From Seinonella peptonophila (lineage in GTDB: Bacteria > Bacillota > Bacilli > Thermoactinomycetales > Thermoactinomycetaceae), in contig NZ_FQVL01000008.1 of assembly GCF_900129355.1 (NCBI RefSeq), positions 99,155 to 131,154 of the forward strand: a stretch of DNA of 32,000 nucleotides. Direction: 5' to 3'. Within the stretch, counting starts at the first letter, position 1. Each line of letters begins with the position of its first letter. Both the position numbers and the translations under genes were made by a program. The notes below the pieces were generated by a model. That model had not been told where the DNA came from and made no database searches. It saw only the letters and a list, made by a program, of their open reading frames with translations. This document shows positions 5,639-22,320 of this stretch, in pieces.

Positions 5639-5689
5639 CAAACCGATTCACTTCAGCCATAATTCCTACTAAATCAATATAAATTGTAT

Positions 5690-5812: not shown

Positions 5813-5821
5813 GATCGTGAT

Positions 5822-5850: not shown

Positions 5851-5872
5851 ATGTTAAAAGGAGTGCGAACTG

Positions 5873-7108
5873 GTGAGTAAAGTTATAGCGACCTATTTGG
5901 TCTATGATCAAAAGAAAAATCTTGCGAAAAAAGCAGAAAGTATAGCACTAGGTTTAACTGTCGGTTCTTGGACAGACTTACCTGCGATTGATCAACAACA
6001 ATTACGCTTATATAAGGGTGAAGTCGTCTCCATCGAAGAGTTACCCATTGATCAGCAAGCTGACACATACTTTGATCGGGAACTAATCAAAGGTTTGATC
6101 AAAATCGCTTATCCTACACGTAATTTCTCTGCTGACTTACCTGCGATCCTTACCACTGTATTTGGTAAGTTATCGCTTGATGGTGAAGTAAAGCTAATCG
6201 ATCTAGACTTCCCTGTAGAACTGGCAAAGCAATTCCCTGGACCGAAACTTGGGGTTAACGGTGTACGTGAAAGACTACAGGTATTTGACCGCCCGTTATT
6301 AATGAGTATTTTCAAAAGTATCATCGGACGAGACCTTGTATTCTTTGAAACACAACTTCGTGCCCAAGCCTTGGGCGGTGTTGATCTTGTGAAAGATGAT
6401 GAAATTTTGTTCGATAATACACTTACTCCTTTTGAGGAACGCATTCGCGTAGCACGTGCAGTATTGAATGAAACAGAACAACAAACAGGCGAACGCACCT
6501 TATATGCTGTGAATCTGACTGGACATACTTTTGAACTATTAGACAAGGCAAAAAAAGCGGTCGAACTTGGTGCAGATGCTCTCTTATTCAACGTTTTTAC
6601 TTATGGACTTGATGTTTTACAAGCGCTAAGTGAAGATCCAGAAATCAATATACCCATCTTGGCCCATCCAGCCTTTGGTGGTGCAGTAACATCATCCACT
6701 TTTTACGGCGTTTCTCATTCCCTTTGGTTTGGTCGTTTCCTTCGTGCTGTTGGTGCTGATCTTGTTCTCTTTCCTTCTCCTTATGGAAGTGTCGCGCTTG
6801 CCAAAGAGGCAGCTTTAGGAATTGCAAAGGAGCTAACGCAAGACTCCGCTAGTTGGAAGACTGCTTTCCCTGTACCATCGGCAGGCATTCATCCCGCGCT
6901 CGTCCCTCAACTGCTAGCAGACTTTCAACTTGATTCTGTAATCAATGCAGGCGGCGGTATTCATGGACATGAGCAAGGAGCAGCAGCAGGCGGACGTGCC
7001 TTTCGACAGGCAATCACTGCTGCGCAAGCAAACATTCCATTATCCCAAGCGGCAAAAGAACATCCTGAACTCGCTACAGCGCTCAGACAATGGGGTGGGC
7101 AAAAATGA
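5873..7108 (+). CDS. mtnW: 2,3-diketo-5-methylthiopentyl-1-phosphate enolase (RuBisCO-like protein)
   Basis: 411 aa with a GTG start after aaaggag. [19 protein letters not shown] and the RuBisCO large-subunit-like core ([10 protein letters not shown]) are present, as is the conserved mtnW-X-B-D order. Confidence 0.92.
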
Positions 7109-7767
7109 GCAAACAACTCCTGATCTTTTGCGATTTTGATGGTACAGTCACCGATACAGACAACATCATTGAGGTGATGAAACACTTTGCGCCACCAGAA
7201 TGGGAACCGATCAAAGATGCCATCCTGTCTGAACAAATCTCGATTAAAAATGGTGTTGGGCAGATGTTTCAGTTGCTCTCAAGCAATTTAAAAGAAGAGA
7301 TTGTCCAATTTGTCCAAGAAAATGCCCACATCCGTCCAGGTTTTGCAGAATTGGTTCAATATGTCAATGAGGAACAAATCCCTTTCTACATCGTGAGTGG
7401 TGGAGTCGACTTTTTTGTTTATCCGGTACTGAAAAATTTCATTTCAACAGCTTCCATTTTCTGCAATGAAGGTGACTTCTCTGGTGAACGGATTCAAATT
7501 AATTGGCCTTATCCTTGTGATGATCAATGTCAGAATGATTGTGGCTGTTGTAAACCATCACTTTTCCGCCGTTTTCCCAGTGATCAATACGAAAAAATCA
7601 TGATTGGCGACTCGATTACTGATTTTGAAGCAAGCAAACAAGCTGATCATGTCTATGCACGCGATTTTCTACAGCAAAAATGTGAAGAACTACAAATTCC
7701 TTATACACCATTTACTACTTTTTATGATATTCTTGCTGACTTGCAAGAAAGGAAGATCACAACATGA
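7105..7767 (+). CDS. mtnX: 2-hydroxy-3-keto-5-methylthiopentenyl-1-phosphate phosphatase (HAD family)
   Basis: [16 protein letters not shown] carries the HAD DxDGT motif, and CGCCKPS plus IGDSITD match MtnX. I prefer the ATG at 7105, which overlaps the mtnW TGA (ATGA), over the ORF-track start at 7090. Confidence 0.9.
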
Positions 7768-8375
7768 TTCTCATTGAAAATTATTGGGATCAACTTGCTG
7801 ATGTAAAAGATGAACTGGCCTCTAGAGGCTGGTTTCCTGGTACTAGTGGAAATCTCTCTATTAAAGTAGATGAAAATCCACGCCGTTTCCTCGTTACAGC
7901 AAGTGGAATCGACAAAACCAAACGTACAGAGGAAGATTTTATATTGGTCGATCAACAGGGGCAGCCTGTTTATCAAACGGAGCTGCGCGTATCTGCTGAA
8001 ACAAGTCTACACTGCCAGGTCTATGAACAAACGGATGCAGGTTGCTGTCTTCATATTCACACCGTTGATAATAATGTCATCTCTGAACTGTATGCAGAGC
8101 AAGGATATATCACTTTTCGCAATCAGGAACTGATTAAAGCATTTGGAATCTGGGATCAAGATGGTGAAATTACTCTACCAATCATAGAAAATCATGCTAA
8201 TATGGAATTATTAACTCAAGCTTTTGCCCAAGCGATCAGCGCTGAGAGCTATGGCGTCTTAATCCGCAATCATGGGATTACCGTTTGGGGTAAAGATGCA
8301 TTTACGGCTAAAAAACATCTTGAAGCATTTGAATTCTTATGCTCATATGAACTAAAACTTAGACAATTTGCATAA
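7764..8375 (+). CDS. mtnB: Methylthioribulose-1-phosphate dehydratase (class II aldolase/adducin fold)
   Basis: 203 aa. WFPGTSGNLSIKV, PSAETSLH, CCLHIHTVDNNVISE and LIRNHGITVWGK parallel B. subtilis MtnB. It has an ATGA overlap with mtnX. Confidence 0.9.
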   Translation: MILIENYWDQLADVKDELASRGWFPGTSGNLSIKVDENPRRFLVTASGIDKTKRTEEDFILVDQQGQPVYQTELRVSAETSLHCQVYEQTDAGCCLHIHTVDNNVISELYAEQGYITFRNQELIKAFGIWDQDGEITLPIIENHANMELLTQAFAQAISAESYGVLIRNHGITVWGKDAFTAKKHLEAFEFLCSYELKLRQFA

Positions 8376-8395
8376 AAAATAAAGGAGGAATTAAG

Positions 8396-8920
8396 GTGGC
8401 ACAATTACGTTTTCATGATACAGAGGAAAGAGTGGAAAATCAGGCGGAAGTGAGCGCATACTTAGAAAGCCAAGGGGTTATTTATGAAAAATGGGATATT
8501 ACAAAACTACCTGCCCACTTACGGGATAACTATCAATTAAATGAACAAGAACAAGCGGAAGTAATCCAAACCTTCAGAAGTGAAATTGATGATTTATCTG
8601 CACGTCGTGGCTATGTAACAGAAGATGTGATTTCCCTCTCGCCACAAACACCTAATCTAGATCAGCTACTCACCAACTTCCTAGCAGAACATCACCATTC
8701 TGATGATGAAGTCCGTTTTATCGTGAGTGGACATGGCATCTTTGCCATCCAAGGACCAAATGGTCGCTTTGCAGATGTAGAATTAGAAGCGGGTGATTTA
8801 ATTTCTGTACCTGAGGGTTACCGTCATTACTTTACGCTGATGGATGATCGCCAGGTCGTTGCGATTCGTATATTTAAAGGTAAAGAGGGCTGGGTACCCA
8901 TCTACGATAAAGAATCATAA
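8396..8920 (+). CDS. mtnD: Acireductone dioxygenase (cupin)
   Basis: 174 aa with a GTG start after aaaggagg. EHHHSDDEVRFIVSGHGIF and LISVPEGYRHYFTL are the ARD metal-binding cupin motifs. Confidence 0.92.
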   Translation: MAQLRFHDTEERVENQAEVSAYLESQGVIYEKWDITKLPAHLRDNYQLNEQEQAEVIQTFRSEIDDLSARRGYVTEDVISLSPQTPNLDQLLTNFLAEHHHSDDEVRFIVSGHGIFAIQGPNGRFADVELEAGDLISVPEGYRHYFTLMDDRQVVAIRIFKGKEGWVPIYDKES

Positions 8921-9084
8921 GCGCCTGCCTCGGTAGAGAAATGTAAAAGACTTTGCAGAAAATTGTTTTTGCTATACTAAATCAGATAAGGGACGCACTG
9001 CGTCCCTGTCAACGCCTTTAGAATAGAGACGTGAAGACTACAATGGATGTTTCGCCAAAACAGTTGCCATGTAGTCGGTGGTAA

Positions 9085-9116
9085 AAGCGGTTGCTAATGA
9101 AGCAGCCGTTTTTAAT
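9085..9116 (+). terminator. Candidate rho-independent terminator downstream of the mtn operon
   Basis: aagcggttgc taatgaa gcagccgtt forms a stem with two G-U pairs, followed by tttttaatt. Confidence 0.5.
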
Positions 9117-9232
9117 TATTCCATCCATACTCTCAGAAGAGTAGAGTCGGTACACCGAATTTAATCAATCATAAATCGGCATTGATCCGTAAGCGACTCC
9201 TTCTACTGGGCGAAAGCTATCTTAAAAGCCCT

Positions 9233-9469
9233 CTACCGCAGTGAGATGATTTCCTTACCAAACTCATACATTATAAAAGCAAGGTTGAAGACGTTCGCAT
9301 CACTCTCTGACACGAGCTGAGCTTTGTCATCCCTATGCCAAGTGAGTAAACGTACTATCTCCAACCCATTTGAAAATAGTCTATAATAGGACATTCTATC
9401 CTGTTCATTTGGTATGTTACTAGACTCAAAATTGACCCAATATATCATATTGAAATAATAGTCAATCAT
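9233..9469 (-). CDS. Hypothetical 78-aa ORF (doubtful)
   Basis: Open frame only. There is no Shine-Dalgarno before the ATG and no recognisable family. Confidence 0.2.
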   Translation of the reverse strand: MIDYYFNMIYWVNFESSNIPNEQDRMSYYRLFSNGLEIVRLLTWHRDDKAQLVSESDANVFNLAFIMYEFGKEIISLR

Positions 9470-10614
9470 TGCTACATTTTAAATGCGAATTTGATTCTAG
9501 AACGGAACTCGTATGTAAAAAGATATAATCTTGGACTGCTTTTATCACGCTGAACAACCTGCCATCAATCAATGTAAATGTGGAGTGCCCCCTATGTTCA
9601 ACATGCATTGACCATTTTTCAGGTGTCATTTGTTATGATTGCGCTCAGCAAATGGAGAGTTCTATTAAGAGTTAGCAAATAATTGCAATTGAACACAGAA
9701 AAAGCGATCAATGGCTATCCACTATTTGAAATCTTCTACCTAGTAAGTGTATGATGATAGAGATATGCCTGAAAGAGTTGTGGTATCACTCACTTTCAAG
9801 TTAAGTGTGCCACTCCTCTTTTCATTTGTATGCATAAAAATACTAAAAACTTAATAGAAACCCATACTGCTCACATGTATATAAACTTCTCAATTGCGAA
9901 GAAGGGAGGGATTTATTATTAAAATTGGAAAATTCTAATAAATTTGAGATTTATATAAACACCTGCAACAAAGGAGGTGTAAATGTGAGTATAGGCGGTG
10001 ATGGAGACCTGCATGATTAAGTCTCAATTATTTATAAAACTATAGAGCGTTCTTTTAGCTTCAATCAAATAAACTACTTTATATTGAAATATAATGATAA
10101 ATATACCTTCTTTCAAACCATATACGATCATAGAGTGACAACCATCGTCACTGTGAAGATAAGAATAACTCTATATACGATAAACGAGCCCTATGTGCCC
10201 CCTTCTCTCACATAGGGCTGTAGTCTTGTAGATAAAGTTATGTGATCTGCTCGTGATCATGGTTCACGTCGACGCTCCGACTTAAGCTTGCAAGGATGTT
10301 TGGCTGTTCACTCATTTTTCCAAATGAAAAGTTGAAATCCGTTTTTTCTTATTCATTATAAGCAGATTATCAGAAAGCCCTAACGATTTTGATATCTGCT
10401 TGATTTGACATCATACAGATTTTGGAATTTACAAAGCGATGACTTAGAAAGCGATCCACGATACAATGGAAGAGTTTCGGTTTATAACAAATAAAAGTAT
10501 TTCTGACGGTTTTGACGGAATTAAACATATACAACAGTATATCAAGTGAATACTTCCAAGATATCTTATCACCTTCTATATGTTCTTCTTATTTAAACAG
10601 GAGGCTTTATTATT

Positions 10615-11829
10615 ATGTCAGATACAATTCAATCCAGTATATCAACTAGCCAACCTCAAAACTTATCAAAAAACAATCAGCTCCCATTATGGAAGCTGAT
10701 TGCCTTATCAGCGGCCGGTTTTGTCGCGATTATGACGGAAACTATGCCAGCAGGTCTCTTGATTCAAATTAGTAGAGACCTCCAAGTCTCAGAAGCCTTA
10801 GTGGGGCAGTTGATCACATTATTTGCAATCGGCGCGATGGTCTCAGCAATCCCATTGATCGCTCTGACAAGAAGTTGGGGGCGTAAAAAGGTATTTATCC
10901 TCGCACTTGCTGGCTTATTTTTGTTCAACACAATCACGGCTCTATCAACTAACTATGTATTAACTCTTATTGTCAGGTTTGGTGCTGGCATGTCGATTGC
11001 TCTAATTTGGGGATTATTTGCAGGCTATGCGCGGAGGATGGTTCCACAGCACTTACAAGGGCGGGCGTTAGCCATTGCAGGGGTGGGGCAGCCACTCGCT
11101 TTATCTTTAGGCGTACCACTTGGAACTTGGCTTGGCAAGTTTATAGAGTGGCAAATGATCTTTGGCTTGATTTCGATGATTATCTTAGGGCTAATCATTT
11201 GGATGCTTTTTTTATTACCTGATTTCCCTGGACAAGCGGCAGCTCAAAGAAAATCTCTTCGTCAAGTCTTTGTTATGCCAGGCGTTCGTCCCATCTTATT
11301 TGTACTTTTTGTCTGGGTTTTGGCTCATAATATCCTCTATACCTACATCGCCCCCTTTATGGCGCATGCAGGTCTTGCAAATCGATTAGATATTGCTCTG
11401 CTGGTATTTGGTATCTCATCATTAGTTGGCATCTGGATCACAGGTCTCTTCATTGATGGTCGACTTCGTACACTTACCTTGATCAGTCTTGCTAGCTTTG
11501 CCGTTGCAGCATTGGTATTGGGTATCTTCGTTTCAGTCCCACTGCTGATCTATATCGGAATCGCTGCCTGGGGTCTTACATTTGGAGGAGGTCCTACATT
11601 ATTGCAAACAGCCATTGCTGACACAGCCGAAGAGAATGCTGATGTAGCCATGTCGATGTTTGTAACCGTTTTTAACTTATCAATTGCTGCAGGTGGCATG
11701 GTAGGTGGTCTCTTGCTAGATTATGTTGGAGCAGGAACCTTTCCTTGGGCGCTCGTACTACTTAGTCTGATCGGACTCTTTACAGTCTGGCGCAATCGAA
11801 AACATGCATTCATACCTGATCAAAAGTAA
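10615..11829 (+). CDS. MFS transporter (12-TM, drug/sugar efflux-like)
   Basis: 404 aa and hydrophobic throughout. The TM2-3 loop LTRSWGRKKV resembles the MFS motif A. RBS aacaggagg precedes the ATG. Confidence 0.85.
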   Translation: MSDTIQSSISTSQPQNLSKNNQLPLWKLIALSAAGFVAIMTETMPAGLLIQISRDLQVSEALVGQLITLFAIGAMVSAIPLIALTRSWGRKKVFILALAGLFLFNTITALSTNYVLTLIVRFGAGMSIALIWGLFAGYARRMVPQHLQGRALAIAGVGQPLALSLGVPLGTWLGKFIEWQMIFGLISMIILGLIIWMLFLLPDFPGQAAAQRKSLRQVFVMPGVRPILFVLFVWVLAHNILYTYIAPFMAHAGLANRLDIALLVFGISSLVGIWITGLFIDGRLRTLTLISLASFAVAALVLGIFVSVPLLIYIGIAAWGLTFGGGPTLLQTAIADTAEENADVAMSMFVTVFNLSIAAGGMVGGLLLDYVGAGTFPWALVLLSLIGLFTVWRNRKHAFIPDQK

Positions 11830-11860
11830 ATATGCCGTCCTTAAGTGATGGACGGCATAT
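11830..11860. terminator. Bidirectional hairpin between the convergent MFS and yhfT-like genes
   Basis: Perfect 11-bp stem atatgccgtcc / ggacggcatat with a 9-nt loop. Confidence 0.6.
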
Positions 11861-11896
11861 GTTAACGTTATCATTTTGGACTGTTAGAAAACAACC

Positions 11897-13183
11897 TTAT
11901 GATGGAGGTGTATAAAGTCCTACCAATGCTAAAACATTGGCCAAAATCCCGACGATGATCGCAGCTAGAGGACCAGCCGCTAATCTCATTACAGGTCTTC
12001 CCGCAATTTCATTTAACACATAGAGTGATACAACAACAAAGAAGCCCGTTCCTGCCCAAATTTGATTCCCAGCGTTCATTCCACCTACTAATAAGGCAAC
12101 TTCTAAAATCTGCGTCATCCCATTTCGAATATTATCCCCTGAATTTTTTAGCGCAGGGAATTTATTGAGAAAACGACCGATTTTCCCTAGACTTAGCACC
12201 TCAACCCCCATCGCTGAAGCACCTAGCACCCCAGCCAATAATGGGTTGCCTGATAAATAGCCAATTCCGATCAGCCAATCACACCAACCATTTGTAGCAT
12301 AGACACCACTAATTAAAGAAGTGGTAACGATCAAAGGTAAAAATCCAATTGCTGATACAATGGCAACAATGGCAGCAGAGGTAATATCTCCTTTTCCTAA
12401 CAACGCTCCCGCAATGGGCTCACCTGCGATCCAATGGAAACTAGCGGCAATGGCCAAAATCGCCCCCATCGGCAATAGATAATAGATATTTTTACGAATT
12501 CGCGAGGCGTTTTCTGCAAATACCCCTTCGCCCATATCGATCTCTTTCGTCTTATCCCTTGCAGCAATCACGATTAAGCAGATCATCCCGACTAGCATCG
12601 CCATCCCTTCGGGACTGAGGGAGACTTCACTTCCACCAATTTTAAGCGGATTTATCTTCTCTACCACAATTCGCGCTACTAGTGAGAACAGAAATGTAAT
12701 CAAACCTTTTTTCTTACCAAATTGATATCCTACTGCCAATGCAGGGAAAGCGACAAAAGCATAGACAATTGGATCACCAACAGAAGCCAATGCATCGAGG
12801 AAATTAACGGGTAGATGCTTAAAGCCTTTAATAATCGCATCTAATGTAACGGTGACAATTCCTCCATATAATGTACCTACGATTGTCGCAATGATCGAAC
12901 TGGAGAAAAATGTTCCAATAATATCCGCTGCAAGTAAAACAATATGAATCACAATGATTCCTGTTGCTAAGGTGATCGGCATGGCGAATCCTGTAATAAA
13001 ACCAATACTGATCGCAAAGGAGACTGCTGCCAATTCTCTGCGTTTCATATTCCCATTGAGAAACTCAGGCATAATAGGTCGCAAACCATCATGATAGACA
13101 GCAATCGCCCGATTGGCGAGAAATGATGCATATCCACCCATGATTGCAAAGATGATAATCTTGATTATTTGCATCGAGTTCAT
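11897..13183 (-). CDS. yhfT: YhfT-like polytopic membrane protein (putative transporter)
   Basis: 428 aa and almost entirely hydrophobic (at least 10 TM). It is the last gene of a cluster whose composition and order match E. coli yhfZ-yhfT as I recall it. Confidence 0.65.
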   Translation of the reverse strand: MNSMQIIKIIIFAIMGGYASFLANRAIAVYHDGLRPIMPEFLNGNMKRRELAAVSFAISIGFITGFAMPITLATGIIVIHIVLLAADIIGTFFSSSIIATIVGTLYGGIVTVTLDAIIKGFKHLPVNFLDALASVGDPIVYAFVAFPALAVGYQFGKKKGLITFLFSLVARIVVEKINPLKIGGSEVSLSPEGMAMLVGMICLIVIAARDKTKEIDMGEGVFAENASRIRKNIYYLLPMGAILAIAASFHWIAGEPIAGALLGKGDITSAAIVAIVSAIGFLPLIVTTSLISGVYATNGWCDWLIGIGYLSGNPLLAGVLGASAMGVEVLSLGKIGRFLNKFPALKNSGDNIRNGMTQILEVALLVGGMNAGNQIWAGTGFFVVVSLYVLNEIAGRPVMRLAAGPLAAIIVGILANVLALVGLYTPPS

Positions 13184-13221
13184 GGTTCACCCTCCCATTT
13201 CTACTATGACTATGTCGATTT

Positions 13222-13596
13222 TTATTCTTTTTCAAGTAAGGTATCTAAGAGCAGCTTCATCGATTGTTCTACATGATCATTGGTAAAACCAAATGCCTTC
13301 ACACCTTTTTTAACGGCTTCCTCAACAACTTCCTTTTTAGGCGCTCGACCAGCCATCGAGATCGTCGCGCATTTATCGCGACCTAAGACACCATAAGCCA
13401 TTGCTAATGCACCACCTGCACCGCTCTGGCATGCTCCAACGTAATAGTCATAAGTTCCATTTTTCACTAACATTGCCGCTTCTACATCGGTAAAAATATC
13501 AGCCACTGCTTGTTGACTGGCATGCTGCTCGACATACGCTTTGATCTCATTCTTTGTTAATTGACCGCCAATGGCAAACTTCATCATGGTATTCAT
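13222..13596 (-). CDS. yhfU: YhfU-like DUF2620 protein
   Basis: About 120 aa. The likely true start is the ATG at 13587 (MMKFAIGG), 9 nt after aggag. The ORF-track ATG at 13596 abuts the RBS. It has a Gly/Cys-rich loop YVGACQSGAGGALAMA. Confidence 0.6.
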   Translation of the reverse strand: MNTMMKFAIGGQLTKNEIKAYVEQHASQQAVADIFTDVEAAMLVKNGTYDYYVGACQSGAGGALAMAYGVLGRDKCATISMAGRAPKKEVVEEAVKKGVKAFGFTNDHVEQSMKLLLDTLLEKE

Positions 13597-13599
13597 CTC

Positions 13600-14793
13600 C
13601 TATTTCATTACAATTTGTTCATAAAAGCTGGTTCCAAACTCAGGCTTTGGTAATTGGAAAAACTGACTCATCGTCGCACCAATATCAGCCATTGTTGAAC
13701 GTGTTCCAATTGAAACCGGTTGAACTTTTGATCCAATCACTAGAATCGGCGTATATTCACGAGTATGGTTTGAGTGTCCTATCGTTGGATCATTTCCATG
13801 ATCTGCCGTAATAATCAGTACATCATCGTCTTGAAGCAGTGGAATAAATGAGTCTAGGAACTGATCGACTGTTTCCAGTACTGACCGATACCATGTCACA
13901 TCTTCGGCATGTCCTGCTAAATCGGTCTCTTGGACATTGACTAGAAAAGCCGCAGCTTTCTTCTCCTCTTCATAGAGCTTTTGAAAGCGTTTTAATACCT
14001 CGGAAGTTTGAACAACCGGATCTGCATAACCGCGTCCATGCACTACATCGGCTGTTTTTCCAATTCGATATACAGGGATGTCAAATTGTTCGGCAAGTGT
14101 TGGAAATTGCTTTTCGTAGTCTACTCCATAACCTAAATGCATCACTTGATAACCTTCCCCATAAACGCCTGCTTTTGGGCTATCGACACCCCATTGTCCG
14201 GGATTTTTCTCTTTAACCGCTGCGAGAATACGTTCAATATTTGTCTTTTGATTTCCGTAAACGATCACTCGACTTGTATCAACATGCTGACGAATCATCT
14301 TTCCGATCTGAATCGATTCTGCAAAAGAGATCTGGTTTAAATCACAGACCACATTGATAATATTGCCCAATGCCGATTCAAGGTTATCACCAATGACAAC
14401 AGCTTGATTTACCAACAACACACTCCCATTTGAAACAGGATGTGTCACTTGATATCCAGCTTGCTTTAGTACCTGCTCAAATAGATCTCCTACTTCCATC
14501 ATCAGCCGCTTCTGTGGTTTGCCTGGTCTGCTGCCCATTAACTCCTGATGGCCCATAAAAGTATCTGCTCCATAATGCGCCAATTTACTACGCCCAAAGG
14601 CTGCCGTAGGGACACCCTGATCATCGACAAGTCGTCCCAATCCTAAACGATATAAAGTAGGGATCTGCAAACACACTTGTTCACGAATATGTTTATACGT
14701 ATGAGCATTTAGATCTGAAGGCTGAATCTGTAGGCAATCTTCCATCGCTCCGATTCCAAAACCATCAAGGACGAGTAAGGTTATTTTCCCCAT
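13600..14793 (-). CDS. yhfW: Phosphopentomutase-family metalloenzyme (YhfW-like)
   Basis: 397 aa. LLVLDGFGIG and ITADHGNDPTIGHSNHTREYTPILVIG match the DeoB/alkaline-phosphatase-superfamily metal and active-site motifs. Its start abuts the stop of the upstream gene with a 0-nt gap. Confidence 0.8.
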   Translation of the reverse strand: MGKITLLVLDGFGIGAMEDCLQIQPSDLNAHTYKHIREQVCLQIPTLYRLGLGRLVDDQGVPTAAFGRSKLAHYGADTFMGHQELMGSRPGKPQKRLMMEVGDLFEQVLKQAGYQVTHPVSNGSVLLVNQAVVIGDNLESALGNIINVVCDLNQISFAESIQIGKMIRQHVDTSRVIVYGNQKTNIERILAAVKEKNPGQWGVDSPKAGVYGEGYQVMHLGYGVDYEKQFPTLAEQFDIPVYRIGKTADVVHGRGYADPVVQTSEVLKRFQKLYEEEKKAAAFLVNVQETDLAGHAEDVTWYRSVLETVDQFLDSFIPLLQDDDVLIITADHGNDPTIGHSNHTREYTPILVIGSKVQPVSIGTRSTMADIGATMSQFFQLPKPEFGTSFYEQIVMK

Positions 14794-15954
14794 TTATGTC
14801 CCTCTTCTCTGCAAATAAACAAGTTCAGGTTTTTGGTCGATATGGCGGATATAAGCAACATGTGCGCGCGTAACAAAAATCTGTGTTCTGAAAGCATAGA
14901 CTACCGTATCTCCAATAGCTGTATCTTCTTTACGTTCCAACTCACCATAATAATCAATATGATCTCCTCTATAATCTTCTGTCACTCGATGATAATGATG
15001 AAGAATCTGATCAGGGTGACGTGCTACAAATGCACCTTTCATATGAGATCGAGGATAAAATCCTCCTCCTATCACATAAACATGGTCATCATAAAAATGG
15101 GAGACTTCCGTGACATATACCATCGCTGGCAACTCATCTAGATCCAAAGCTGCATGAAGAGGGGTTGTACCTGTTAATGCATGTCCTGGTTCTCCATGTG
15201 TAATCCCCTGTTGCTTCAGCATGGGAATCGTATGACAACATGTCGCACTAGGCCCATTTAGCTGTGTCACATTCATTCCAAAAGATTGCAGAAGGTCACG
15301 CGCTGCCAATAAAGTCTCTAGATTTGAGGTAAACAGATATTCGGTCTGTGTTTCATTCAGCTTTAAAACAGGAAAAGTCGTAACCCCTACAACGCGAATC
15401 CCAGATAGTTTGTTCAGTTCAGGTATTACCTTTGATAGTTCCTCTAAAGTAAAACCACCTGCCTGACCTTGGTAATATTCATCATTTGGTTGAACGACTC
15501 GCAGCAAAACATCCTGCACCAGCCCATGCTGGATCGCTTTAGCAGATAACTGAGCTGCTCTCTCTTTTGAAAAAACCGTCACAACTTGCGGTTGTATCTG
15601 CTTTAAAATATGCCCCCATTCATTTTTGCCAGGCTGTACAAGATGACCCAAATGACCGATTTTTACGCCTGATTTTGCTAAAATACGCGCCTCATCATAA
15701 TCGACTGCTACGGCTTGATCAATTCCATGTTGACTAATCCAACGACCGATAAAATCATTTCTACCCAGTTGCTTTGACATAAAATAAAGCTGAAAATCAT
15801 GTTCTTTTGCTGTTAGGGATAGTTTTTGGATATTGTGTGTTAGTGCATCCAAATCAACTACATACGTATTGGGAGGGATTTGTCCCGATTGATGGAGCAT
15901 CACAGAAGCTTTTAATAAAGACGGATTTCGCCTTTTGATTACATCAGTAAACAT
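14794..15954 (-). CDS. yhfX: PLP-dependent alanine-racemase-fold protein (YhfX-like)
   Basis: 386 aa. MFTDVIKRRNPSLLKASVMLHQSGQIPPNTYVVDLD and FMSKQLGRN (candidate PLP lysine) parallel E. coli YhfX as I recall it. Confidence 0.78.
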   Translation of the reverse strand: MFTDVIKRRNPSLLKASVMLHQSGQIPPNTYVVDLDALTHNIQKLSLTAKEHDFQLYFMSKQLGRNDFIGRWISQHGIDQAVAVDYDEARILAKSGVKIGHLGHLVQPGKNEWGHILKQIQPQVVTVFSKERAAQLSAKAIQHGLVQDVLLRVVQPNDEYYQGQAGGFTLEELSKVIPELNKLSGIRVVGVTTFPVLKLNETQTEYLFTSNLETLLAARDLLQSFGMNVTQLNGPSATCCHTIPMLKQQGITHGEPGHALTGTTPLHAALDLDELPAMVYVTEVSHFYDDHVYVIGGGFYPRSHMKGAFVARHPDQILHHYHRVTEDYRGDHIDYYGELERKEDTAIGDTVVYAFRTQIFVTRAHVAYIRHIDQKPELVYLQRRGT

Positions 15955-15956
15955 GC

Positions 15957-16331
15957 CTATCCCTCCTTTGTATCGACCTGTGCTAAGTAATTAGCAAGAT
16001 GTGCCATGATAAATCCGTGTTCTTGAGTTGGAAGGACATAAGGCAAATTCGCCTGTATCGCTTCAAACATCTCTTTTGCCTGACTGTAATAGGGAGAGCT
16101 CTTCACCTCCTCTTCAATTCCAGGCGCGGGAAGAGGAAGCGCTTCATTCTGCTCGATCCTAGTTACGACCATCGCCAGATGAGTTAACATCATCTCAGCC
16201 GCTTCATGTCTACTTGGCGTATTGATTTGAAGCTGTTGAATTATTTGCAGCGTTATATCATAAGCTAAAGGGGTGATCACTTCCTGTTTAAGCAGAAAAG
16301 CTAGCCGATCATTTGCATATTTCATTGTCAT
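15957..16331 (-). CDS. yhfY: PRD-domain-only protein (YhfY-like)
   Basis: 122-124 aa and all-helical-looking. It has two His-containing helices (MLTHLAMVV, FIMAHLANYL) typical of a PTS regulation domain. The second ATG (16325) has better spacing from aaggaag. Confidence 0.6.
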   Translation of the reverse strand: MTMKYANDRLAFLLKQEVITPLAYDITLQIIQQLQINTPSRHEAAEMMLTHLAMVVTRIEQNEALPLPAPGIEEEVKSSPYYSQAKEMFEAIQANLPYVLPTQEHGFIMAHLANYLAQVDTKEG

Positions 16332-16337
16332 CTTCCT

Positions 16338-16358
16338 TACAAAGTACAGTATTTTGTA
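16338..16358. promoter_or_regulatory. 21-bp near-perfect palindrome abutting the yhfY RBS
   Basis: TACAAAGTAC-A-GTATTTTGTA has 9 of 10 symmetric pairs. It shares the core ACAG-WWW-TTTGTAT with the site at 17381-17398. Confidence 0.45.
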
Positions 16359-16371
16359 TTTTAATTGGATA

Positions 16372-16407
16372 GATGATTCTAATCCCCCAGATCAGATTAG
16401 AATCATC
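16372..16407 (-). terminator. Perfect 13-bp stem hairpin in the yhfZ-yhfY intergenic region (terminator or attenuator candidate)
   Basis: gatgattctaatc / gattagaatcatc with a 10-nt loop. It is followed on the minus strand by A/T-rich sequence but no clean U-tract. Confidence 0.45.
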
Positions 16408-16432
16408 CACATTGCGCGAATCGCAGCATAGG

Positions 16433-17380
16433 CTAATAATGGGGCAAGATTTGTTTTGTCTCGACTTTCTTTTGTGTCTCTAAAATTTCTTCCACTGATA
16501 ACATAGAAAGAATCGTCTGTAGTTCTGTTTGCTCCGCTTTAATCAAGAGACATGCTTCTGTTATCTTCTGTTCAATCTTTTTTGCATGTGAACGGCTCAA
16601 AGGAATCTGTTTCATCAATGGAGCATTTCTTCCTACTTCATCTTTATTCCAGATCGCTGCATCGATTTGTCCGATTTCTAGCATATCTAAGAGATTCATA
16701 TAACTTAGCTCAATAAATGTAACATCTAGTCCTTCACATTCTGCAAGCGTTAGCTCTCTCTGGTCATCTGAAGTATGATCAATCCCAATCTTCATTCCAC
16801 TTTCAATTCGGGTATATTCAGGATGAGAAAGGAAAATCGAATGACCAGATACATAGGAAAAAGGTCCAAAAGTTAAGCCGATCTGAACGGCTGGATCCTG
16901 TTTGCAGATTAGTTCAGCCGCCAATCGCGAGACAATCGCAAAATCGTATCTACCATCTAGCATTGCCTTTACACGGGGTAATGATCCACGCATATAAGCC
17001 AGATGAAAAGGTAAGTCCTTTTTTTTGAATGCTTTTGTTAATCCTGTTGCCAAGCCTTCATATTTCTTCGAATAAGGTAATGGCATCGCACCAATCAATT
17101 GACCAATCCCTGAAAATTGAAGGAGCTTATGATTATCTTTTGCTAATAAAAATGTCCCTAAGTGTCCACGCGATTCTACACGAATCGCTTGATTCTCTTC
17201 TAAGAAACGTAAAGCGCCTTGGATGGTACCTCTGCCTAATGATAACTCGCTCGCAAAGTCACTAATCCTGGGAATCCGCTGATTCACTTCGATTGTCAGC
17301 ATCTTTCGAGCTATTTTCTGGGCAGCGAATCCATACTTTGTTAAAAGCATTTGCTCCAACTTGATCCCTCTAACCTTCAA
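16433..17380 (-). CDS. yhfZ: YhfZ-like transcriptional regulator (GntR-like wHTH plus periplasmic-binding-protein-like C-domain)
   Basis: The N-terminus IPRISDFASELSLGRGTIQGALRFLEENQAIRVESRGHLGTF is a winged HTH, followed by a large alpha/beta C-terminal domain. The ORF-track TTG at 17380 has no RBS. TTG 17359 (after agaggga) or ATG 17350 is a more likely start. Confidence 0.6.
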   Translation of the reverse strand: MKVRGIKLEQMLLTKYGFAAQKIARKMLTIEVNQRIPRISDFASELSLGRGTIQGALRFLEENQAIRVESRGHLGTFLLAKDNHKLLQFSGIGQLIGAMPLPYSKKYEGLATGLTKAFKKKDLPFHLAYMRGSLPRVKAMLDGRYDFAIVSRLAAELICKQDPAVQIGLTFGPFSYVSGHSIFLSHPEYTRIESGMKIGIDHTSDDQRELTLAECEGLDVTFIELSYMNLLDMLEIGQIDAAIWNKDEVGRNAPLMKQIPLSRSHAKKIEQKITEACLLIKAEQTELQTILSMLSVEEILETQKKVETKQILPHY

Positions 17381-17398
17381 TATACAGATATTTGTATA
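17381..17398. promoter_or_regulatory. Perfect 6-6-6 palindrome upstream of yhfZ
   Basis: TATACA-gatatt-TGTATA. It is related to the 16338-16358 site. Confidence 0.4.
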
Positions 17399-17487
17399 TT
17401 GGATTTTCTTTAGTGTAGCTCTTTTTTATTTCATATGCAAGTAAAATCTACAATCGGATTTGATGGTGAAAAAATGAAAGCCTTTTC

Positions 17488-17516
17488 TTGCTTTCTGTCC
17501 ATAGATATTTTATGAT
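17488..17516 (+). promoter_or_regulatory. Candidate sigma-A promoter of the PTS operon
   Basis: TTGCTT-N17-TATGAT, about 35 nt upstream of the RBS aaaggagg. Confidence 0.4.
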
Positions 17517-17550
17517 ATATGAAAATAATTTTCATAAAGGAGGTTTTTTG

Positions 17551-19095
17551 ATGAGTACTTTCTTCGAGAAAGCACAACAATTTGGTAAATCATTTATGCT
17601 TCCTATCGCTGTACTGCCTGCGGCTGGTCTACTATTAGGAATTGGAGGGGCACTTTCCAATCCAAATACAGTAAAGGTATATTCTTTTCTGGATATTGGC
17701 TGGCTTCAATCTATTTTTACGATCATGTCTAGTGCAGGTACTGTTGTCTTTGCAAACCTGGCGCTCCTTTTTGCCATTGGAATTTCGATCGGTCTTGCAA
17801 AAACAGATAAAGGGACAGCCGGATTAGCAGGCGTACTTGCTTTTCTCGTCATGAATGCAACCATCTCTGCCTTGCTGACTATTACAGGGAAGCTCAATAC
17901 AGAAAACCCAGCTGCAGTGGGTCAAGGTTCTATACTGGGCATTCAAACGTTAGAAACAGGCGTTTTTGGTGGGGTGCTTGTGGGAATATTAGCCGCTTGG
18001 CTTCACAATCGCTATAACAAAAAGCAATTGCCCAAATTCCTTGGCTTTTTCAGTGGTTCACGATTTGTACCCATTATTGCTTCTTTTGCCGCTATTTTTC
18101 TTGGTATCATCCTCTTTTTTGTCTGGCCTTTCATCCAAAAAGGTATCTTTCAAATGGGTGGTCTAGTCGAGGCGACTGGATATATCGGAACACTGATCTA
18201 TGGCTTTGTTCTCCGTATGCTTGGACCCTTTGGACTCCACCATATTTTCTATATGCCATTTTGGACAACGAGTCTTGGCGGCTCCATGATGATCCATGGA
18301 AAGCTGATCGAGGGAACACAACGTATATTTTTTGAACAGTTGGCCGATCCCAATATACAGCAATTCTATATCGGTACAGCACGCTTTATGTCTGGCCGTT
18401 TTATTACGATGATGTTTGGTTTAGTCGGCGCTTGCTTAGCTATGTATCATGCTGCTAAGCCTGAAAATAAGAAGCTCGTTGCCGGTCTGCTCACATCTGC
18501 CGCGCTCACTTCATTTCTAACCGGCATTACAGAACCAATCGAATTCTCTTTTCTTTTTATCGCTCCTGCTTTATATGTATTACACGCCTTCTTTGATGGA
18601 TTGGCCTTTATGCTTGCCCATATCTTTCAGATCACAATCGGTCAAACATTCTCAGGTGGATTTATTGACTTCATCCTCTTTGGCATCCTGCAAGGAAATG
18701 CGAAGACCAACTGGGTCATGGTTCCGATTATTGGGATCTTCTGGTTCTTCTTATACTACTTCTCATTTAAATTCCTAATTAAAAAATTCAATTTCAAAAC
18801 ACCTGGAAGAGAGGACACTGAGGAAGCCAGCGTACAGATCACAAGTCAGAGTGAGCGTGCCAACACAATTATTCAGGGTCTGGGTGGTAAAGAAAATTTA
18901 CAAGATGTTGATTGTTGCGCAACTCGTTTAAGAGTAACAGTGAAGGATGTCCAATTAGTAGATGATGGACTCCTTAAACAGACGGGTGCGCGCGGAATTG
19001 TCAAAAAAGGAAATGGCGTCCAAGTAATCTATGGTCCTGAGGTCACAATCATTAAAAATGAAGTGGAAGAAATTGTGGGGGAATCATATGCTTAA
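17551..19095 (+). CDS. PTS EIICB component, glucose/GlcNAc superfamily
   Basis: The start [33 protein letters not shown] is a typical EIIC-Glc N-terminus, with ATG at 17551 after aaaggagg. The C-terminal EIIB domain carries the phospho-Cys motif DCCATRLRV. The ORF-track N-terminal extension from 17488 is rejected. Confidence 0.9.
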
Positions 19096-19801
19096 ACAAA
19101 TCAATCAGCGCTTGGTCGTTTCCTGCCAGGCGTTAGAGCATGAACCACTTCATAGTTCCTATATTATGTCCAAAATGGCTCTTGCCGCTCAAGAAGGCGG
19201 AGCTGCGGGCATCCGAGCAAATTCACAAGCAGATATTCAAGCGATCAAAGCAGAGGTAGCTTTACCTGTGATCGGAATTATCAAAAGGAATTATGAAGAT
19301 AGTGATGTATTTATAACAGCTACAAAAAGAGAGCTGAATGAGCTATTCGAAAGCGGTTGTGATATGATCGCAATGGATGCCACCTTTCGAAAAAGACCTA
19401 GTGGTATACAACTTGCTGATCTGGTCACATATGTTCGCAAACAAAATCCAGCCATCCAACTGATGGCAGATATATCATCAGTCGAAGAGGCACGATATGC
19501 TGAGAAACTCGGATTTGACTGTGTATCAACTACCTTATATGGGTACACCGATCAAACAAAAGAACAGAAGCTCTATGACAGTAACTTTTCATTCTTAAAA
19601 CACGTATTACACCATGTTTCTCTTCCTGTCATTGCTGAAGGGAACATCATCACACCTGAAATGGCACAAAAAGCCTTAATACTGGACGCACATGCCGTAG
19701 TAGTGGGAGGAGCAATCACTCGCCCACACCAAATTACTGCTCGTTTTGTTGAGCAAATCTCTAAGCAAAACCACACTGTTACTGCAGAAACACAGCGATA
19801 A
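19088..19801 (+). CDS. nanE: N-acetylmannosamine-6-phosphate 2-epimerase
   Basis: [30 protein letters not shown] and [12 protein letters not shown] are NanE hallmarks. The ATG at 19088 overlaps the PTS stop by 8 nt. Confidence 0.88.
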
Positions 19802-20017
19802 CGAGCTGATCTCATATACACTAGATTCGATATTCAGGTTCAAGCGTGTTCTTTAGGCGAAGTGGTGAGAGATCGTAAATCTACTCGATACGTCTCTCGC
19901 CCTCTCACAGCTCAAGTTCAACGATACGATGCTTAAATGAACAAACAAATCCTTTCAATGTAGGATTGAAATCGATTCACTTCCATCAGACAATGGGATA
20001 AAAAGGGAGTTTGACGC

Positions 20018-20815
20018 ATGTCCTCGGTTTTAAATGAAATCCAAAGCATTTACTCATCTTTATCCGATAAGGAAAAAAGCATCGCCAACTATATTCTAGC
20101 CCACCCTGAAGAGACTTCAAGAGGGCATATACAGGAACTTGCGGATGCTACAGGCGTTTCTATCAGTGCCATTACACGTTTTGCCAAAAAGGTATCTTGC
20201 AAAAATTTTGTTGAAATGAAAGTGAAGCTAGCTAGTGGTGCTGATCCAAAACCAAGTACAGGAATCGAACAGCGACTACTCGCTTCTTATCGGGATATGC
20301 TAACAGATGTACAGTCATTGATCGATCATAAGCGTTTCCAAAATGTTTTAAAACTGATCCAGAACGCAAAGCGAATCTTTATCTATGGACTAGGCAGTTC
20401 AGGTCTAGCTGCCCAAGAGTTAAATTATCGTCTCAGTCGAATGGGTTTTATCTCTGAATCGATCACTGATCCTCACTTGATGGTTATTCGTAGCACACTT
20501 TTACAGGATGGTGATTTAGTCCTCGCTTTTTCTCGCTCGGGGCAAACGATTGATCTGTTGCAATCGATCCAAAAAGTGAAAGATAAAGGTGCCAAAGTAA
20601 TTGCTTTTACTGCATATGGTGATTCCCCTCTCATAAAAATAGCGGATGAATTTTTATGGACGGTTCATCCTATGCGAAATACTTTTATACTTACGGGTCT
20701 AGATATGAGTACACTCTATTTAATTGATAGAATCAGTCTTCATTTTCTTGCAGATCAGAAGCGAGAAGCACTTTATTTAGAGACAGTCGATGCAATCCAT
20801 AATCGAAGAAGCTGA
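20018..20815 (+). CDS. RpiR/MurR-family regulator (HTH_6 plus SIS domain)
   Basis: 265 aa. LSDKEKSIANYILAHPEE..IQELADATGVSISAITRFAKK forms the HTH, and IFIYGLGSSGLAAQELNYRL..AFSRSGQT forms the SIS domain. Confidence 0.88.
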   Translation: MSSVLNEIQSIYSSLSDKEKSIANYILAHPEETSRGHIQELADATGVSISAITRFAKKVSCKNFVEMKVKLASGADPKPSTGIEQRLLASYRDMLTDVQSLIDHKRFQNVLKLIQNAKRIFIYGLGSSGLAAQELNYRLSRMGFISESITDPHLMVIRSTLLQDGDLVLAFSRSGQTIDLLQSIQKVKDKGAKVIAFTAYGDSPLIKIADEFLWTVHPMRNTFILTGLDMSTLYLIDRISLHFLADQKREALYLETVDAIHNRRS

Positions 20816-20965
20816 TCGATTACAAAATTCATGATTCGTCATATCAATCGAATCAATCACAAGTTGATTGTTCCTTACATCGCTTTAATAGTCAAGTAAT
20901 CTCTATAAAGGAATGGGGTTGCCTCAAGGCGAAAGTTGAAACGCAAACAAGAAAGGAAGGGTAGT

Positions 20966-21454
20966 ATGTTTAAAAAATTATTTGGGCGTACCAATTCTAA
21001 TAGCAAAGAGACTCTTTTTGCACCGCTGTCTGGTCAAATTGTCCCACTTGATCAAGTTCCAGACGCTGCTTTTGCAGAAAAGATGCTAGGAGATGGCGTT
21101 GCCATTCAACCGGCTGAAGGAGAAGTAGTTGCCCCAATTGAAGGAGAAGTGGTAACCATTCCTCCTACGAAACATGCGATCGGCATTCGATCGCCACAAG
21201 GAGTAGAGATTTTGATCCACATTGGACTTGATACTGTACAGTTAAAAGGAGAAGGGTTTGAAACACTCGTCGAAGAAGGACAGCGAGTCTCAGTCGGTCA
21301 ACCTCTACTCCGATTTCAGCTCGATTTGTTACAAGCAAAAGGACTTAACACTGTAACCCCTGTTGTGATCACAGATACCAAAGGTGATCGGTCTGTCGAA
21401 GTATTAGCACAAGATGAGGTTACCAAAGGTAAGACCATACTGATCCAAATTTAG
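20966..21454 (+). CDS. PTS EIIA(Glc) domain protein
   Basis: 162 aa from the ATG at 20966 (RBS gaaaggaagg). DAAFAEKMLGDGVAIQP, TKHAIGI and LIHIGLDTV are the two-His EIIA-Glc motifs. Confidence 0.9.
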   Translation: MFKKLFGRTNSNSKETLFAPLSGQIVPLDQVPDAAFAEKMLGDGVAIQPAEGEVVAPIEGEVVTIPPTKHAIGIRSPQGVEILIHIGLDTVQLKGEGFETLVEEGQRVSVGQPLLRFQLDLLQAKGLNTVTPVVITDTKGDRSVEVLAQDEVTKGKTILIQI

Positions 21455-21627
21455 TTAAATATTCCGATTCATTTCAATTGTTGTCTTCCACGATAGAAGA
21501 TACAATTGATATCAAGTGACTGGTACGAGACGATATGAAATGTCGTTGTCCCTTTATAGCTCCGAAAAATGGCTATTCAGACTTTAGATGTCTATAGATT
21601 TGCAAATTTTCCCTCAATTTATACCAC

Positions 21628-21656
21628 GTGACCATGGGGCACACCCCCATGGTCAC
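21628..21656 (-). terminator. Perfect 12-bp GC-rich hairpin downstream of the mini-ORF
   Basis: gtgaccatgggg cacac ccccatggtcac. There is no strong U-tract. Confidence 0.45.
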
Positions 21657-21683
21657 AGCCATCACTAGAAACTCATCAGGTCA

Positions 21684-21779
21684 TCAGTTCTCGATGGTCT
21701 CCTTGTCGTAGCAATCCTGGCAAAGCTTCTTACCACCGATGGTGATCATCCACTCTTTCTGTTTGCACTTGTCACACAT
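21684..21779 (-). CDS. Unannotated 31-aa CxxC...CxxC zinc-ribbon-like mini-protein
   Basis: The sequence is MCDKCKQKEWMITIGGKKLCQDCYDKETIEN. RBS gagggaa lies about 11 nt upstream and a hairpin about 28 nt downstream. It is below the ORF-track length cutoff. Confidence 0.4.
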   Translation of the reverse strand: MCDKCKQKEWMITIGGKKLCQDCYDKETIEN

Positions 21780-22320
21780 AGGATCTCATTCCCTCTCAAT
21801 TCACAACCACATGAGTAGCATCAAAAGCACAACAATTGATCTCGTGTTGGGTCGATAAACCTCCCGAACTGAGCATATTCTCCATTCATTTATACTATAT
21901 CAAATAGACCAAATGATTTGAACCATATCTCTTTTTTATGCTGATGAGATCGAACTTATTTTATTTTTTAACACGTTTTACTGTTGTTAATCTGTCAACC
22001 ACTAAGCCCATCTCGATGCTCATAACAAGCATCCATCATATTATTCAACCATAACTCCTATATCACAATAAACATATCTTTTTTGAATCATCTCTGTTTA
22101 ACACCAATTGCCCTCAGCCATTATGTGAGAACACGTGTCAATATGCCATATGAAGCAAATGTAAATCTCCCAAAATCATCCCACTCGAATATACAATCGT
22201 TTGTATGATTAAATTACTAATGAGTTTCTATACTAGTTAAAAAATACAGTAATATTGATCCTACTTAACTTTCTTGATAATATTTTTGATGTGATCGGAT
22301 TGTACGAAAGGAGCAAACCT

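Follow-up and report, generated by a model that had tools for sequence, protein, structure and literature searches.

We characterized a six-gene operon of Seinonella peptonophila that lies in a 32-kb stretch of DNA (32,000 nucleotides of contig NZ_FQVL01000008.1, positions 99,155 to 131,154), in the following called the window. The genes yhfZ, yhfY, yhfX, yhfW, yhfU and yhfT (Z, Y, X, W, U and T for short) are co-directional on the minus strand at 11897–17350, with yhfU encoding a protein of the DUF2620 family. They belong to a system that has already been catalogued but is uncharacterised, of which the window holds another member in a recurrent, short mosaic form. On balance we favour the view that the region would be a catabolic locus linked to the phosphoenolpyruvate:sugar phosphotransferase system (PTS), controlled by YhfZ and dedicated to a compound of the amino-sugar type, metabolised as a phosphate ester.

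Among the gene blocks of E. coli K-12 that still lack an assigned function, the yhf cluster is one of the larger. It is spread over Firmicutes, Proteobacteria, Actinobacteria, Thermotogae and Spirochaetes, and two of its families, DUF2620 and YhfT, have no known role. An earlier note on the window, made from the letters alone, had held that no substrate or pathway was established for the cluster. This agrees with the full-text literature that we searched, which contained no functional study of these genes or of DUF2620 and YhfT. In the RefSeq copy of 2026 all eight E. coli yhf genes carry the label putative or uncharacterised, and a paper of January 2026 still calls yhfW a putative mutase. The interest lies in this open question rather than in the present copy, and a comparison of 80 related loci makes the question directly testable.

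The operon and its relatives

The listing of open reading frames (ORFs) contains the six genes on the minus strand at the coordinates given by the earlier note (Table 1). All six proteins scored above the curated cut-offs of the hidden Markov models for the families that the note had named, i.e. YhfZ, PRD, YhfX, YhfW, DUF2620 and YhfT, and the search moved none of them into another, well-characterised family. The tight spacing that the note had described was read from the sequence as well: the Y stop and the X start are separated by 2 nt, the X stop and the W start by 0 nt, and W ends in a TAG that is part of TAGGAG, the ribosome-binding site located 9 nt ahead of the start codon of U. U and T are 38 nt apart, with a strong GGGAGGG ribosome-binding site in front of T. 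The U start at 13587 and the Y start at 16325 are the starts of the deposited proteins. With deposited proteins of Seinonella peptonophila, which belongs to the Bacillales, U and T share 100% identity. For yhfZ the true start is probably the ATG at 17350 and not the TTG at 17380 of the longest ORF, because residue 11 of that ORF is the first to align with the family model, and 17378–17401 is occupied by a conserved putative operator.

As the earlier note had suggested, the gene order is exactly that of the E. coli K-12 cluster yhfZ-Y-X-W-php-U-T-S without php and yhfS. Homologues of these two genes were found nowhere in the 32-kb window, such that the window does not hold the eight-gene cluster of the E. 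coli type. The cluster of E. coli K-12 (b3383–b3376), uncharacterised like the present one, has the same six families, the same strand logic and the order Z-Y-X-W … U-T. It differs in sequence, with 34–42% identity for Z, X, W, U and T, a Y that is undetectable by BLAST, and a T of a different subtype.

To place this layout among its relatives, we scanned species-representative genomes with the YhfT alignment and obtained 412 YhfT relatives, of which the best 80 loci were studied by ORF calling and clustering. The genes travel as the pairs [Z Y], [U T], [X W] and [php yhfS]: U and T were direct neighbours in 68 loci, X and W were so in 64, Z and Y in 59, and php and yhfS in 53, while the order of the pairs varied. 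The core that is conserved across phyla is Y-X-W-U-T. In Firmicutes and Thermotogae the dominant layout was Z-Y-U-T-(amidase-like)-php-yhfS-X-W, which was intact in 35 loci, and in Coriobacteriia and others the layout was Z-Y-U-T-X-W. The arrangement of the window, (Z-)Y-X-W-U-T without php and yhfS, recurred in six Yersinia species, Pantoea dispersa and Pseudomonas lundensis (L004–L012, L019). The co-occurrence trace of php and yhfS that the earlier note had proposed thus yielded the pair in 53 of the 80 loci as well as a recurrent form without it. We take the absence of php and yhfS as the mark of a recurrent short form that is predicted to be functional, not of an incomplete operon.

The short clusters of Yersinia, Pantoea dispersa and Pseudomonas lundensis share with the window an identical gene order and are 70–72% identical to it in T and 58–60% in U. 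The long Firmicute and Thermotogae clusters, Z-Y-U-T-(amidase-like)-php-yhfS-X-W(-nagB)(-HPr), have in common with it the six families, the pair modules and the palindrome (Z-box, see below) before Z and Y. They differ by at least three extra enzymes, by a T at 44–50% identity and by the position of U-T ahead of X-W. When the T proteins are compared, that of the window shares 63–77% identity with those of php-less clusters from four phyla and only 44–50% with those of long clusters. Judged by these identities there are two U/T types, and the T of the window is of a distinct, more conserved subtype.

Three further loci combine the modules in other ways. In Bacillus sp. T33-2 and Neobacillus pocheonensis (L002/L003, approximately 300–13200) a long set Y'-U-T-php-S-X-W-nagB lies beside a second set Z-Y-U-T-S, whose T is of the window type with 75% identity. 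It seems that a single enzyme set here serves two modules for uptake and regulation. A distant cluster on a metagenome contig (L085, 570–8593) has the order PRD-W-X-U-T, with a divergent GntR/UTRA regulator in the place of YhfZ and a GH18 chitinase/EndoS-like gene approximately 2 kb downstream.

A palindrome upstream of yhfZ and yhfY

YhfZ matched the NCBIfam model NF041241 (YhfZ_full) over its full length with 371 bits (cut-off 260). Its Pfam domains are HTH_41, the N-terminal winged helix (62 bits), and YhfZ_C (267 bits), and it matched the YhfZ structure 2OZZ in the Protein Data Bank (PDB) with E = 7e-30. A 24-bp palindrome, CAATATACA-N6-TGTATATTG, precedes both yhfZ and yhfY in the window. 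Across the loci it has the consensus cAAtATACA-N6-TGTAtATTG, in which the flanks, not demanded by the search pattern, are also conserved. In 41 loci a copy of the palindrome was located just upstream of Z, and 33 loci had one between Z and Y. For the core TACA-N6-TGTA, 82 of the 126 matches in 1.58 Mb fell just upstream of Z or Y. Since the palindrome was found in 52 of the 66 loci with Z, versus 1 of the 14 loci without a Z call, it is probably the operator of YhfZ. The two copies, Z-box 1 and Z-box 2, would then be putative YhfZ operators, with Z-box 1 probably serving autoregulation and Z-box 2 probably controlling Y-X-W-U-T. The locus is thus probably organized into two co-regulated transcripts, one for Z and one for Y-X-W-U-T, with a copy of the palindrome ahead of each.

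A scan of positions 11000–22500 against Rfam at E values up to 0.1 gave no match, neither to a known riboswitch nor to an element resembling a ribonucleic antiterminator. A paper on riboswitch candidates that lists the E. coli yhf operon was set aside as irrelevant, because its sites lie 5–12 kb away.

A third exact ATACA-N6-TGTAT palindrome, GAATATACAATCGTTTGTATGATT, is present at 22191–22206, approximately 50 nt upstream of a gene for a MerR/GyrI-like regulator (22255–23151). It may be a third YhfZ site, the operator of the MerR/GyrI-like regulator itself or a chance occurrence, the count in the window not being significant on its own.

YhfY and a probable link to the PTS

Classical regulators with PTS regulation domains (PRDs) are phosphorylated by PTS proteins on conserved histidines. 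YhfY consists of a single PRD (Pfam PF00874, 38.5 bits versus 23) without any RNA- or DNA-binding domain. Among its homologues His51 is invariant (71/71), as is Glu104, and His111 is conserved in 61 of 71, such that YhfY has the two conserved, predicted phosphorylatable histidines of the PRD family. It shares the domain and these histidines with the BglG/LicT and the MtlR/LicR/LevR-type regulators, and HPr genes are associated with the yhf cluster. It differs from them in lacking an RNA-binding, DNA-binding or EIIA/EIIB-like domain, DNA binding residing in a separate GntR-type protein. YhfY is therefore neither a BglG/LicT antiterminator nor a PRD activator, having one PRD and no CAT or DNA-binding domain, and it scored 23 bits with the GlcT model, versus a cut-off of 320. 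To our knowledge, such a split arrangement of a lone PRD protein and a separate GntR-type DNA binder has not been studied so far. A search for YhfY homologues by word index recovered only YhfY itself, the sequence being too divergent.

The PRD protein was always present in the core of the cluster. In six diverse loci a gene for HPr, the general phosphocarrier of the PTS, lies inside the yhf operon as its last or second-to-last gene, and in one Thermotogae genome it is followed by the gene for Enzyme I. In this metagenome-assembled genome (MAG; L051) HPr and Enzyme I are the last genes of the yhf-type operon (16807–19536), and in Petrotoga (L043) HPr is the last gene (14062–14331). If these were the sole PTS machinery of the Thermotogae genomes concerned, they would provide a strong clue to the mechanism.

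Among 147 co-directional neighbour genes from non-redundant loci, the commonest families were Glucosamine_iso (10), PTS-HPr (7), Beta-lactamase (5), MupG (4) and PTS_EIIC (4). The glucosamine-6-phosphate deaminase gene nagB directly follows W in 10–12 loci, and its proteins pass the cut-off of the nagB equivalog model TIGR00502. Genes of the MurQ, MupG and MurR/RpiR type flank the cluster in four loci, a gene for a PBP4B/AmpH-like lipoprotein adjoins it in nine, and a gene for an amidase-signature-like protein lies inside 39 long clusters. No kinase was conserved in the cluster over the 80 loci, PfkB kinases occurring near a few clusters. W and NagB need phosphorylated substrates, yet a conserved kinase is missing, which we count in favour of a link to the PTS.

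The earlier note had suggested a phosphorylated amino sugar or a glycated amino compound as the substrate. The former fits the nagB, HPr and MurQ/MupG/RpiR context without being proven by it, while a glycated amino compound has no specific support.

The enzymes YhfX and YhfW

YhfX is a PLP (pyridoxal 5'-phosphate) enzyme of the YhfX-like group, with matches to Pfam Ala_racemase_N (PF01168, 58.9 bits) and YhfX-like_C (PF21279, 107 bits) and to the solved structure of E. coli YhfX, 4KBX (E = 7e-83). The PLP lysine Lys61, in the motif M-(S/T)-K-Q-x-G-R, is invariant in 70 of 70 homologues. When the profile was compared with the PDB, the next-nearest solved families were remote: alanine racemase at E = 1e-5, followed by YggS and D-threonine/D-3-hydroxyaspartate aldolase down to E = 1e-2. 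In agreement with this, YhfX had no NCBIfam match that would place it as a close member of the alanine racemase or D-threonine aldolase families.

YhfW matched the NCBIfam 'phosphopentomutase' model PRK12383 over its full length with 520 bits (cut-off 254) and aligned end to end with the phosphopentomutase structures from Bacillus. The residues D10, D77, T/S78, D291, H295, D331, H332 and H343 are invariant in 67 homologues. With the Bacillus phosphopentomutase DeoB (3M8W) YhfW has in common the DT nucleophile motif and all ligands of the two metals, but it belongs to the separate PRK12383 group, reached only 151 bits with the DeoB equivalog model TIGR01696 (cut-off 341), and the context of nucleoside catabolism is absent at this locus. 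We predict YhfW to be an active phosphomutase-type enzyme with a substrate other than that of DeoB, because it fails the deoB cut-off though the nucleophile motif and the metal ligands are intact.

A model for the locus

In the PTS-linked reading that we favour, YhfZ would bind the 24-bp palindromes before yhfZ and yhfY and thereby control the transcripts Z and Y-X-W-U-T. In a predicted phosphorelay starting from Enzyme I, HPr would phosphorylate the PRD-only protein YhfY on His51 and possibly YhfU as well, and YhfY would signal the status of the PTS, and possibly of transport, to YhfZ. YhfT would act as permease with YhfU as its obligate cytoplasmic partner, in which the invariant cysteine in a glycine-rich, presumably anion-binding loop may take part in phosphoryl transfer or act on a sugar phosphate. 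YhfW would relocate the sugar phosphate by a phosphopentomutase-like mechanism via a phospho-Thr/Ser and two metals, and YhfX would carry out a PLP-dependent step at an amine-bearing carbon. In the long forms the amidase-like protein, Php and YhfS would first trim a conjugated precursor, and NagB would channel the end product, which is likely glucosamine-6-phosphate, into glycolysis. The characterised relatives of Php in the same Pfam family are phospho-sugar lactonases (PMC10971088). The U/T type of the short form, distinct and highly conserved, would serve to import a compound that is already simple, for which the minimal five-gene core Y-X-W-U-T should suffice. Seen in the sequences are the family memberships, the intact catalytic residues of W and X, the conserved histidines of Y, the palindromes, the pair modules and the recurrent neighbours; the function as operator, the phosphorelay, the role in transport and the endpoint of the pathway are inferred.

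Several points weigh against this model. The best 80 of 412 relatives of the T of the window are a biased sample. The neighbours that point to amino sugars and to the PTS are minorities (nagB in 12/80, HPr in 6/80 and MurQ/MupG in 4/80 loci) and belong mostly to the long form, not to the short form of the window, while the short form in Yersinia, Pantoea and Pseudomonas has no informative neighbours. Instead of binding YhfZ, the palindrome might in principle form a hairpin in RNA or be bound by a different regulator. Matches to the sigma-70 and terminator consensus in the region were no more frequent than by chance, and the promoter scans were unconvincing. YhfT is presumed to be a transporter solely from its conserved polytopic membrane nature and a weak internal repeat, and the case for every member of the system is built from comparisons of sequence and structure. 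Finally, why the imported compound should pass through a phosphomutase is hard to rationalise before a substrate is assigned.

YhfU and YhfT

YhfU matched Pfam DUF2620 with 131 bits versus 25. Its Cys53 is invariant in 53 sequences, in the loop G-A-C-(Q/N)-(S/T)-G-x-G, and the AlphaFold model (mean confidence, pLDDT, 93.5) places the cysteine at the N-terminus of a helix in this Gly-rich loop. The nine best PDB matches of the model were all ribose-5-phosphate isomerase B (RpiB), with template modelling (TM) scores of 0.58–0.70 and probabilities of 0.99–1.0, while a Lac-type Enzyme IIB (EIIB) appeared only at rank 28. In a profile alignment over the full length, Cys53 and Ser55 fell on Cys66 and Thr68 of RpiB. 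In E. coli numbering the catalytic set of RpiB comprises Asp9/His10, Cys66, Thr68, His99 and C-terminal Arg residues. YhfU has Gln-Leu at the positions of Asp9-His10 and is approximately 30 residues shorter at the C-terminus. DUF2620 is a tiny family, with 160 representatives at E values of 1e-3 or better among 1.84 billion proteins. Every match of its profile that we checked in this set was DUF2620 itself, without a bridge to SFCGS or RpiB, and a tblastn search of YhfU against plasmids for SFCGS relatives returned DUF2620 genes only. TAL effectors, which came up when the YhfU profile was compared with the PDB, were dismissed as an artefact in which many weak repeat matches are summed while no single stretch is significant.

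YhfT matched Pfam PF10797 with 479 bits, residues 8–424 covering profile positions 1–430. Its AlphaFold model (pLDDT 87.5) has a weak internal two-fold repeat. In a Foldseek comparison with the PDB the best matches, Band 3 and SVCT1, had TM scores of approximately 0.3, too low to carry meaning, so that no solved relative was found, and the YhfT profile matched none of the PDB sequences even at E values up to 10. Comparison by hhalign with two E. coli Enzyme IIC (EIIC) proteins, SgcC of the Gat family and UlaA of the Asc family, gave probabilities below 1%, as did that of YhfU with the EIIB SgcB, and no Pfam EIIC model matched YhfT even at E values up to 10. By sequence and by fold, YhfT and YhfU are thus not members of the tested EIIB/EIIC families (Gat, Asc, Glc, Lac).

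One explanation for these data is that YhfU is a soluble isomerase of the RpiB/LacAB type with Cys53 as catalytic base. YhfT would then be an ordinary secondary carrier, the kinase would be encoded elsewhere, and YhfY would relay the general catabolite status. Such an enzyme agrees with the fold predicted for YhfU and with the place of its Cys-x-Ser/Thr-Gly loop; in addition, 2 of 53 DUF2620 members have weak matches to Pfam LacAB_rpiB, and PfkB kinases are found near a few clusters. The YhfU of the window, however, has no match to LacAB_rpiB, and only the Cys/Ser loop aligns while the fold is similar. With Gln-Leu in place of Asp9-His10 and the shorter C-terminus, it would lack acid/base and phosphate-binding residues in the roles known from RpiB. 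Also the gene context disagrees: kinases are not conserved, U is found beside T, the membrane protein gene, in 68 of 80 loci irrespective of where X and W lie, and the pair is kept in two loci that have no pathway enzymes, i.e. neither X nor W. We consider an isomerase of this kind doubtful. Of the suggestion in the earlier note that the DUF2620 protein is a possible isomerase, the RpiB-like predicted fold speaks for it, while the strict pairing of U with T points to a role linked to transport.

In one of the loci with U–T outside the usual cluster, a Brevinema MAG (L020, 9614–17043), U–T is followed by a gene of the PNP_UDP_1 phosphorylase family, a PfkB–PTS_IIB fusion and two nucleoside hydrolases. 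In this genome a ribosyl or nucleoside-like compound may be the substrate of the window-type U/T module.

Alternatively, YhfT and YhfU could form a new type of PTS Enzyme II, i.e. a permease class unrelated to the known EIIB and EIIC proteins. The phosphoryl group would pass from phosphorylated HPr to Cys53, YhfT would translocate and phosphorylate the substrate, and YhfU would phosphorylate or dephosphorylate YhfY, as EIIB does with classical PRD regulators. YhfY would be the phosphorylation-sensing partner that switches YhfZ, a PRD-regulator logic split over two proteins. We hold this proposal to be unlikely as it stands, and keep it in consideration because a conserved kinase is missing although W and NagB need sugar phosphates, HPr and Enzyme I lie in some of the operons (HPr in six loci, with Enzyme I after it in the Thermotogae genome), and the PRD protein is always in the core. 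The obligate pairing of U and T, the invariant cysteine at a helix N-terminus in a Gly-rich loop and one DUF2620–PRD fusion protein are consistent with it. So is an analogous, likewise uncharacterised set in Enterococcus faecium, in which SFCGS and DUF4310–4312 proteins occur with DgaE-type enzymes for 6-phosphates and a BglG regulator, the SFCGS model matching 4 of 53 DUF2620 members weakly. On the other hand, YhfT resembles neither the tested EIIC proteins nor any solved structure in profile or fold, and YhfU is closer to RpiB than to any EIIB, with its cysteine after strand 3 and not after strand 1. Furthermore, no EIIA partner is conserved, HPr could serve the phosphorylation of YhfY only, and the fusions are single examples that could be gene-calling artefacts. 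If the proposal were true, a new family would be added to the PTS.

The enterococcal set of SFCGS, DUF4312, DUF4311 and DUF4310 resembles the yhf cluster in combining a small protein with a Cys/Gly loop and functionally unassigned membrane proteins with a PRD regulator and with PLP and sugar-phosphate enzymes. It differs in that the likeness of the small proteins is below significance, the membrane families are others, and the enzymes are DgaE and a KDPG (2-keto-3-deoxy-6-phosphogluconate) aldolase. The fusions were seen in metagenomic proteins (P0205, P0259, P0242) that join Php–DUF2620, DUF2620–PRD and DUF2620–YhfT, with one example each. They are either real or artefacts of gene calling; for DUF2620–PRD a simple read-through is less likely, because the order differs from the usual gene order.

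A cell-wall salvage locus as an alternative

The least probable of the alternatives, and in our view an improbable one, is that the locus salvages cell-wall fragments (muropeptides, teichoic acids or D-amino acids). YhfX would then serve as racemase or in the conversion of D-amino acids, and YhfW as phospho-sugar mutase or phosphatase for phosphates of the N-acetylmuramic acid or N-acetylglucosamine type. This reading would account for the MurQ, MupG and MurR/RpiR genes in 4 loci, the PBP4B/AmpH-like lipoprotein in 9, the amidase-like gene in 39 long clusters, the finding that, beyond its own family, alanine racemases come closest to YhfX among solved proteins, and the divergent neighbours in the window (glucose-family EIICB, NanE, a MurR/RpiR regulator and EIIA). 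Such neighbours, however, are confined to a minority of the loci and missing from the other short-form loci, the PTS–nanE unit is not conserved beside the cluster elsewhere, and YhfX is only remotely similar to racemases (E about 1e-5).

Sequence elements and neighbouring genes in the window

The positions of the genes and of the predicted sequence elements are collected in Table 1. The hairpin downstream of yhfT had a minimum free energy (MFE) of -24.5 kcal/mol (z = -5.2), and none of 200 shuffled sequences folded as well (0/200). It abuts the stop codon of a convergent gene of the major facilitator superfamily and is probably a bidirectional terminator of the operon.

Table 1. Genes and predicted sequence elements of the yhf operon in the window.
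Feature	Position	Strand	Description
yhfZ	16433..17350	-	GntR-type winged-helix regulator with a YhfZ_C ligand-binding-type domain
yhfY	15957..16325	-	PRD-only protein, 122 aa
yhfX	14794..15954	-	fold-type III (alanine-racemase-fold) PLP enzyme
yhfW	13600..14793	-	phosphomutase of the alkaline-phosphatase superfamily, related to phosphopentomutase
yhfU	13222..13587	-	DUF2620, small cytoplasmic alpha/beta protein
yhfT	11897..13183	-	polytopic membrane protein, ~12 helices, presumed permease
Candidate terminator	11822..11860	-	11-bp GC-rich hairpin, then UUACUUUU, U-rich; 36 nt past the yhfT stop
Z-box 1	17378..17401	.	palindrome CAATATACAAATATCTGTATATTG ahead of yhfZ, between yhfZ and the divergent PTS gene
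Z-box 2	16340..16363	.	palindrome TAAAATACAAAATACTGTACTTTG immediately 5' of the yhfY ribosome-binding site
yhfZ 3' hairpin	16369..16410	-	perfect 17-bp stem with 8-nt loop, without U-tract; between the yhfZ stop and Z-box 2

For the hairpin between yhfZ and Z-box 2, folding of the whole region gave an MFE of -33.6 kcal/mol (z = -3.9). The hairpin is specific to this genome; the other loci do not have it, and their Z–Y gap is usually shorter than 60 nt. No further exact copy of its arm was found within the window. It is probably a 3'-end or terminator structure of the Z transcript.

Divergent from yhfZ, on the plus strand at 17488–21454, lies a unit encoding a glucose-family PTS EIICB, NanE (N-acetylmannosamine-6-phosphate 2-epimerase), a MurR/RpiR regulator and EIIA-Glc. 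The EIICB scored 595 bits with TIGR02002 (cut-off 592), and its likely start is at 17551. The unit and yhfZ have a common 200-bp control region that includes Z-box 1. A functional link of the yhf operon to this PTS–nanE unit was rejected, as the unit is not conserved beside the cluster elsewhere, and for the same reason a link to methionine-salvage genes a few kb away was rejected. The latter are seen at 7764–8920, where genes for an MtnB-like class II aldolase and an MtnD-like acireductone dioxygenase lie in a co-directional run of ORFs. From these two genes, which were the ones checked, the stretch 7764–8920, and probably all of 4463–8920, looks like a methionine-salvage cluster of the Bacillus type.

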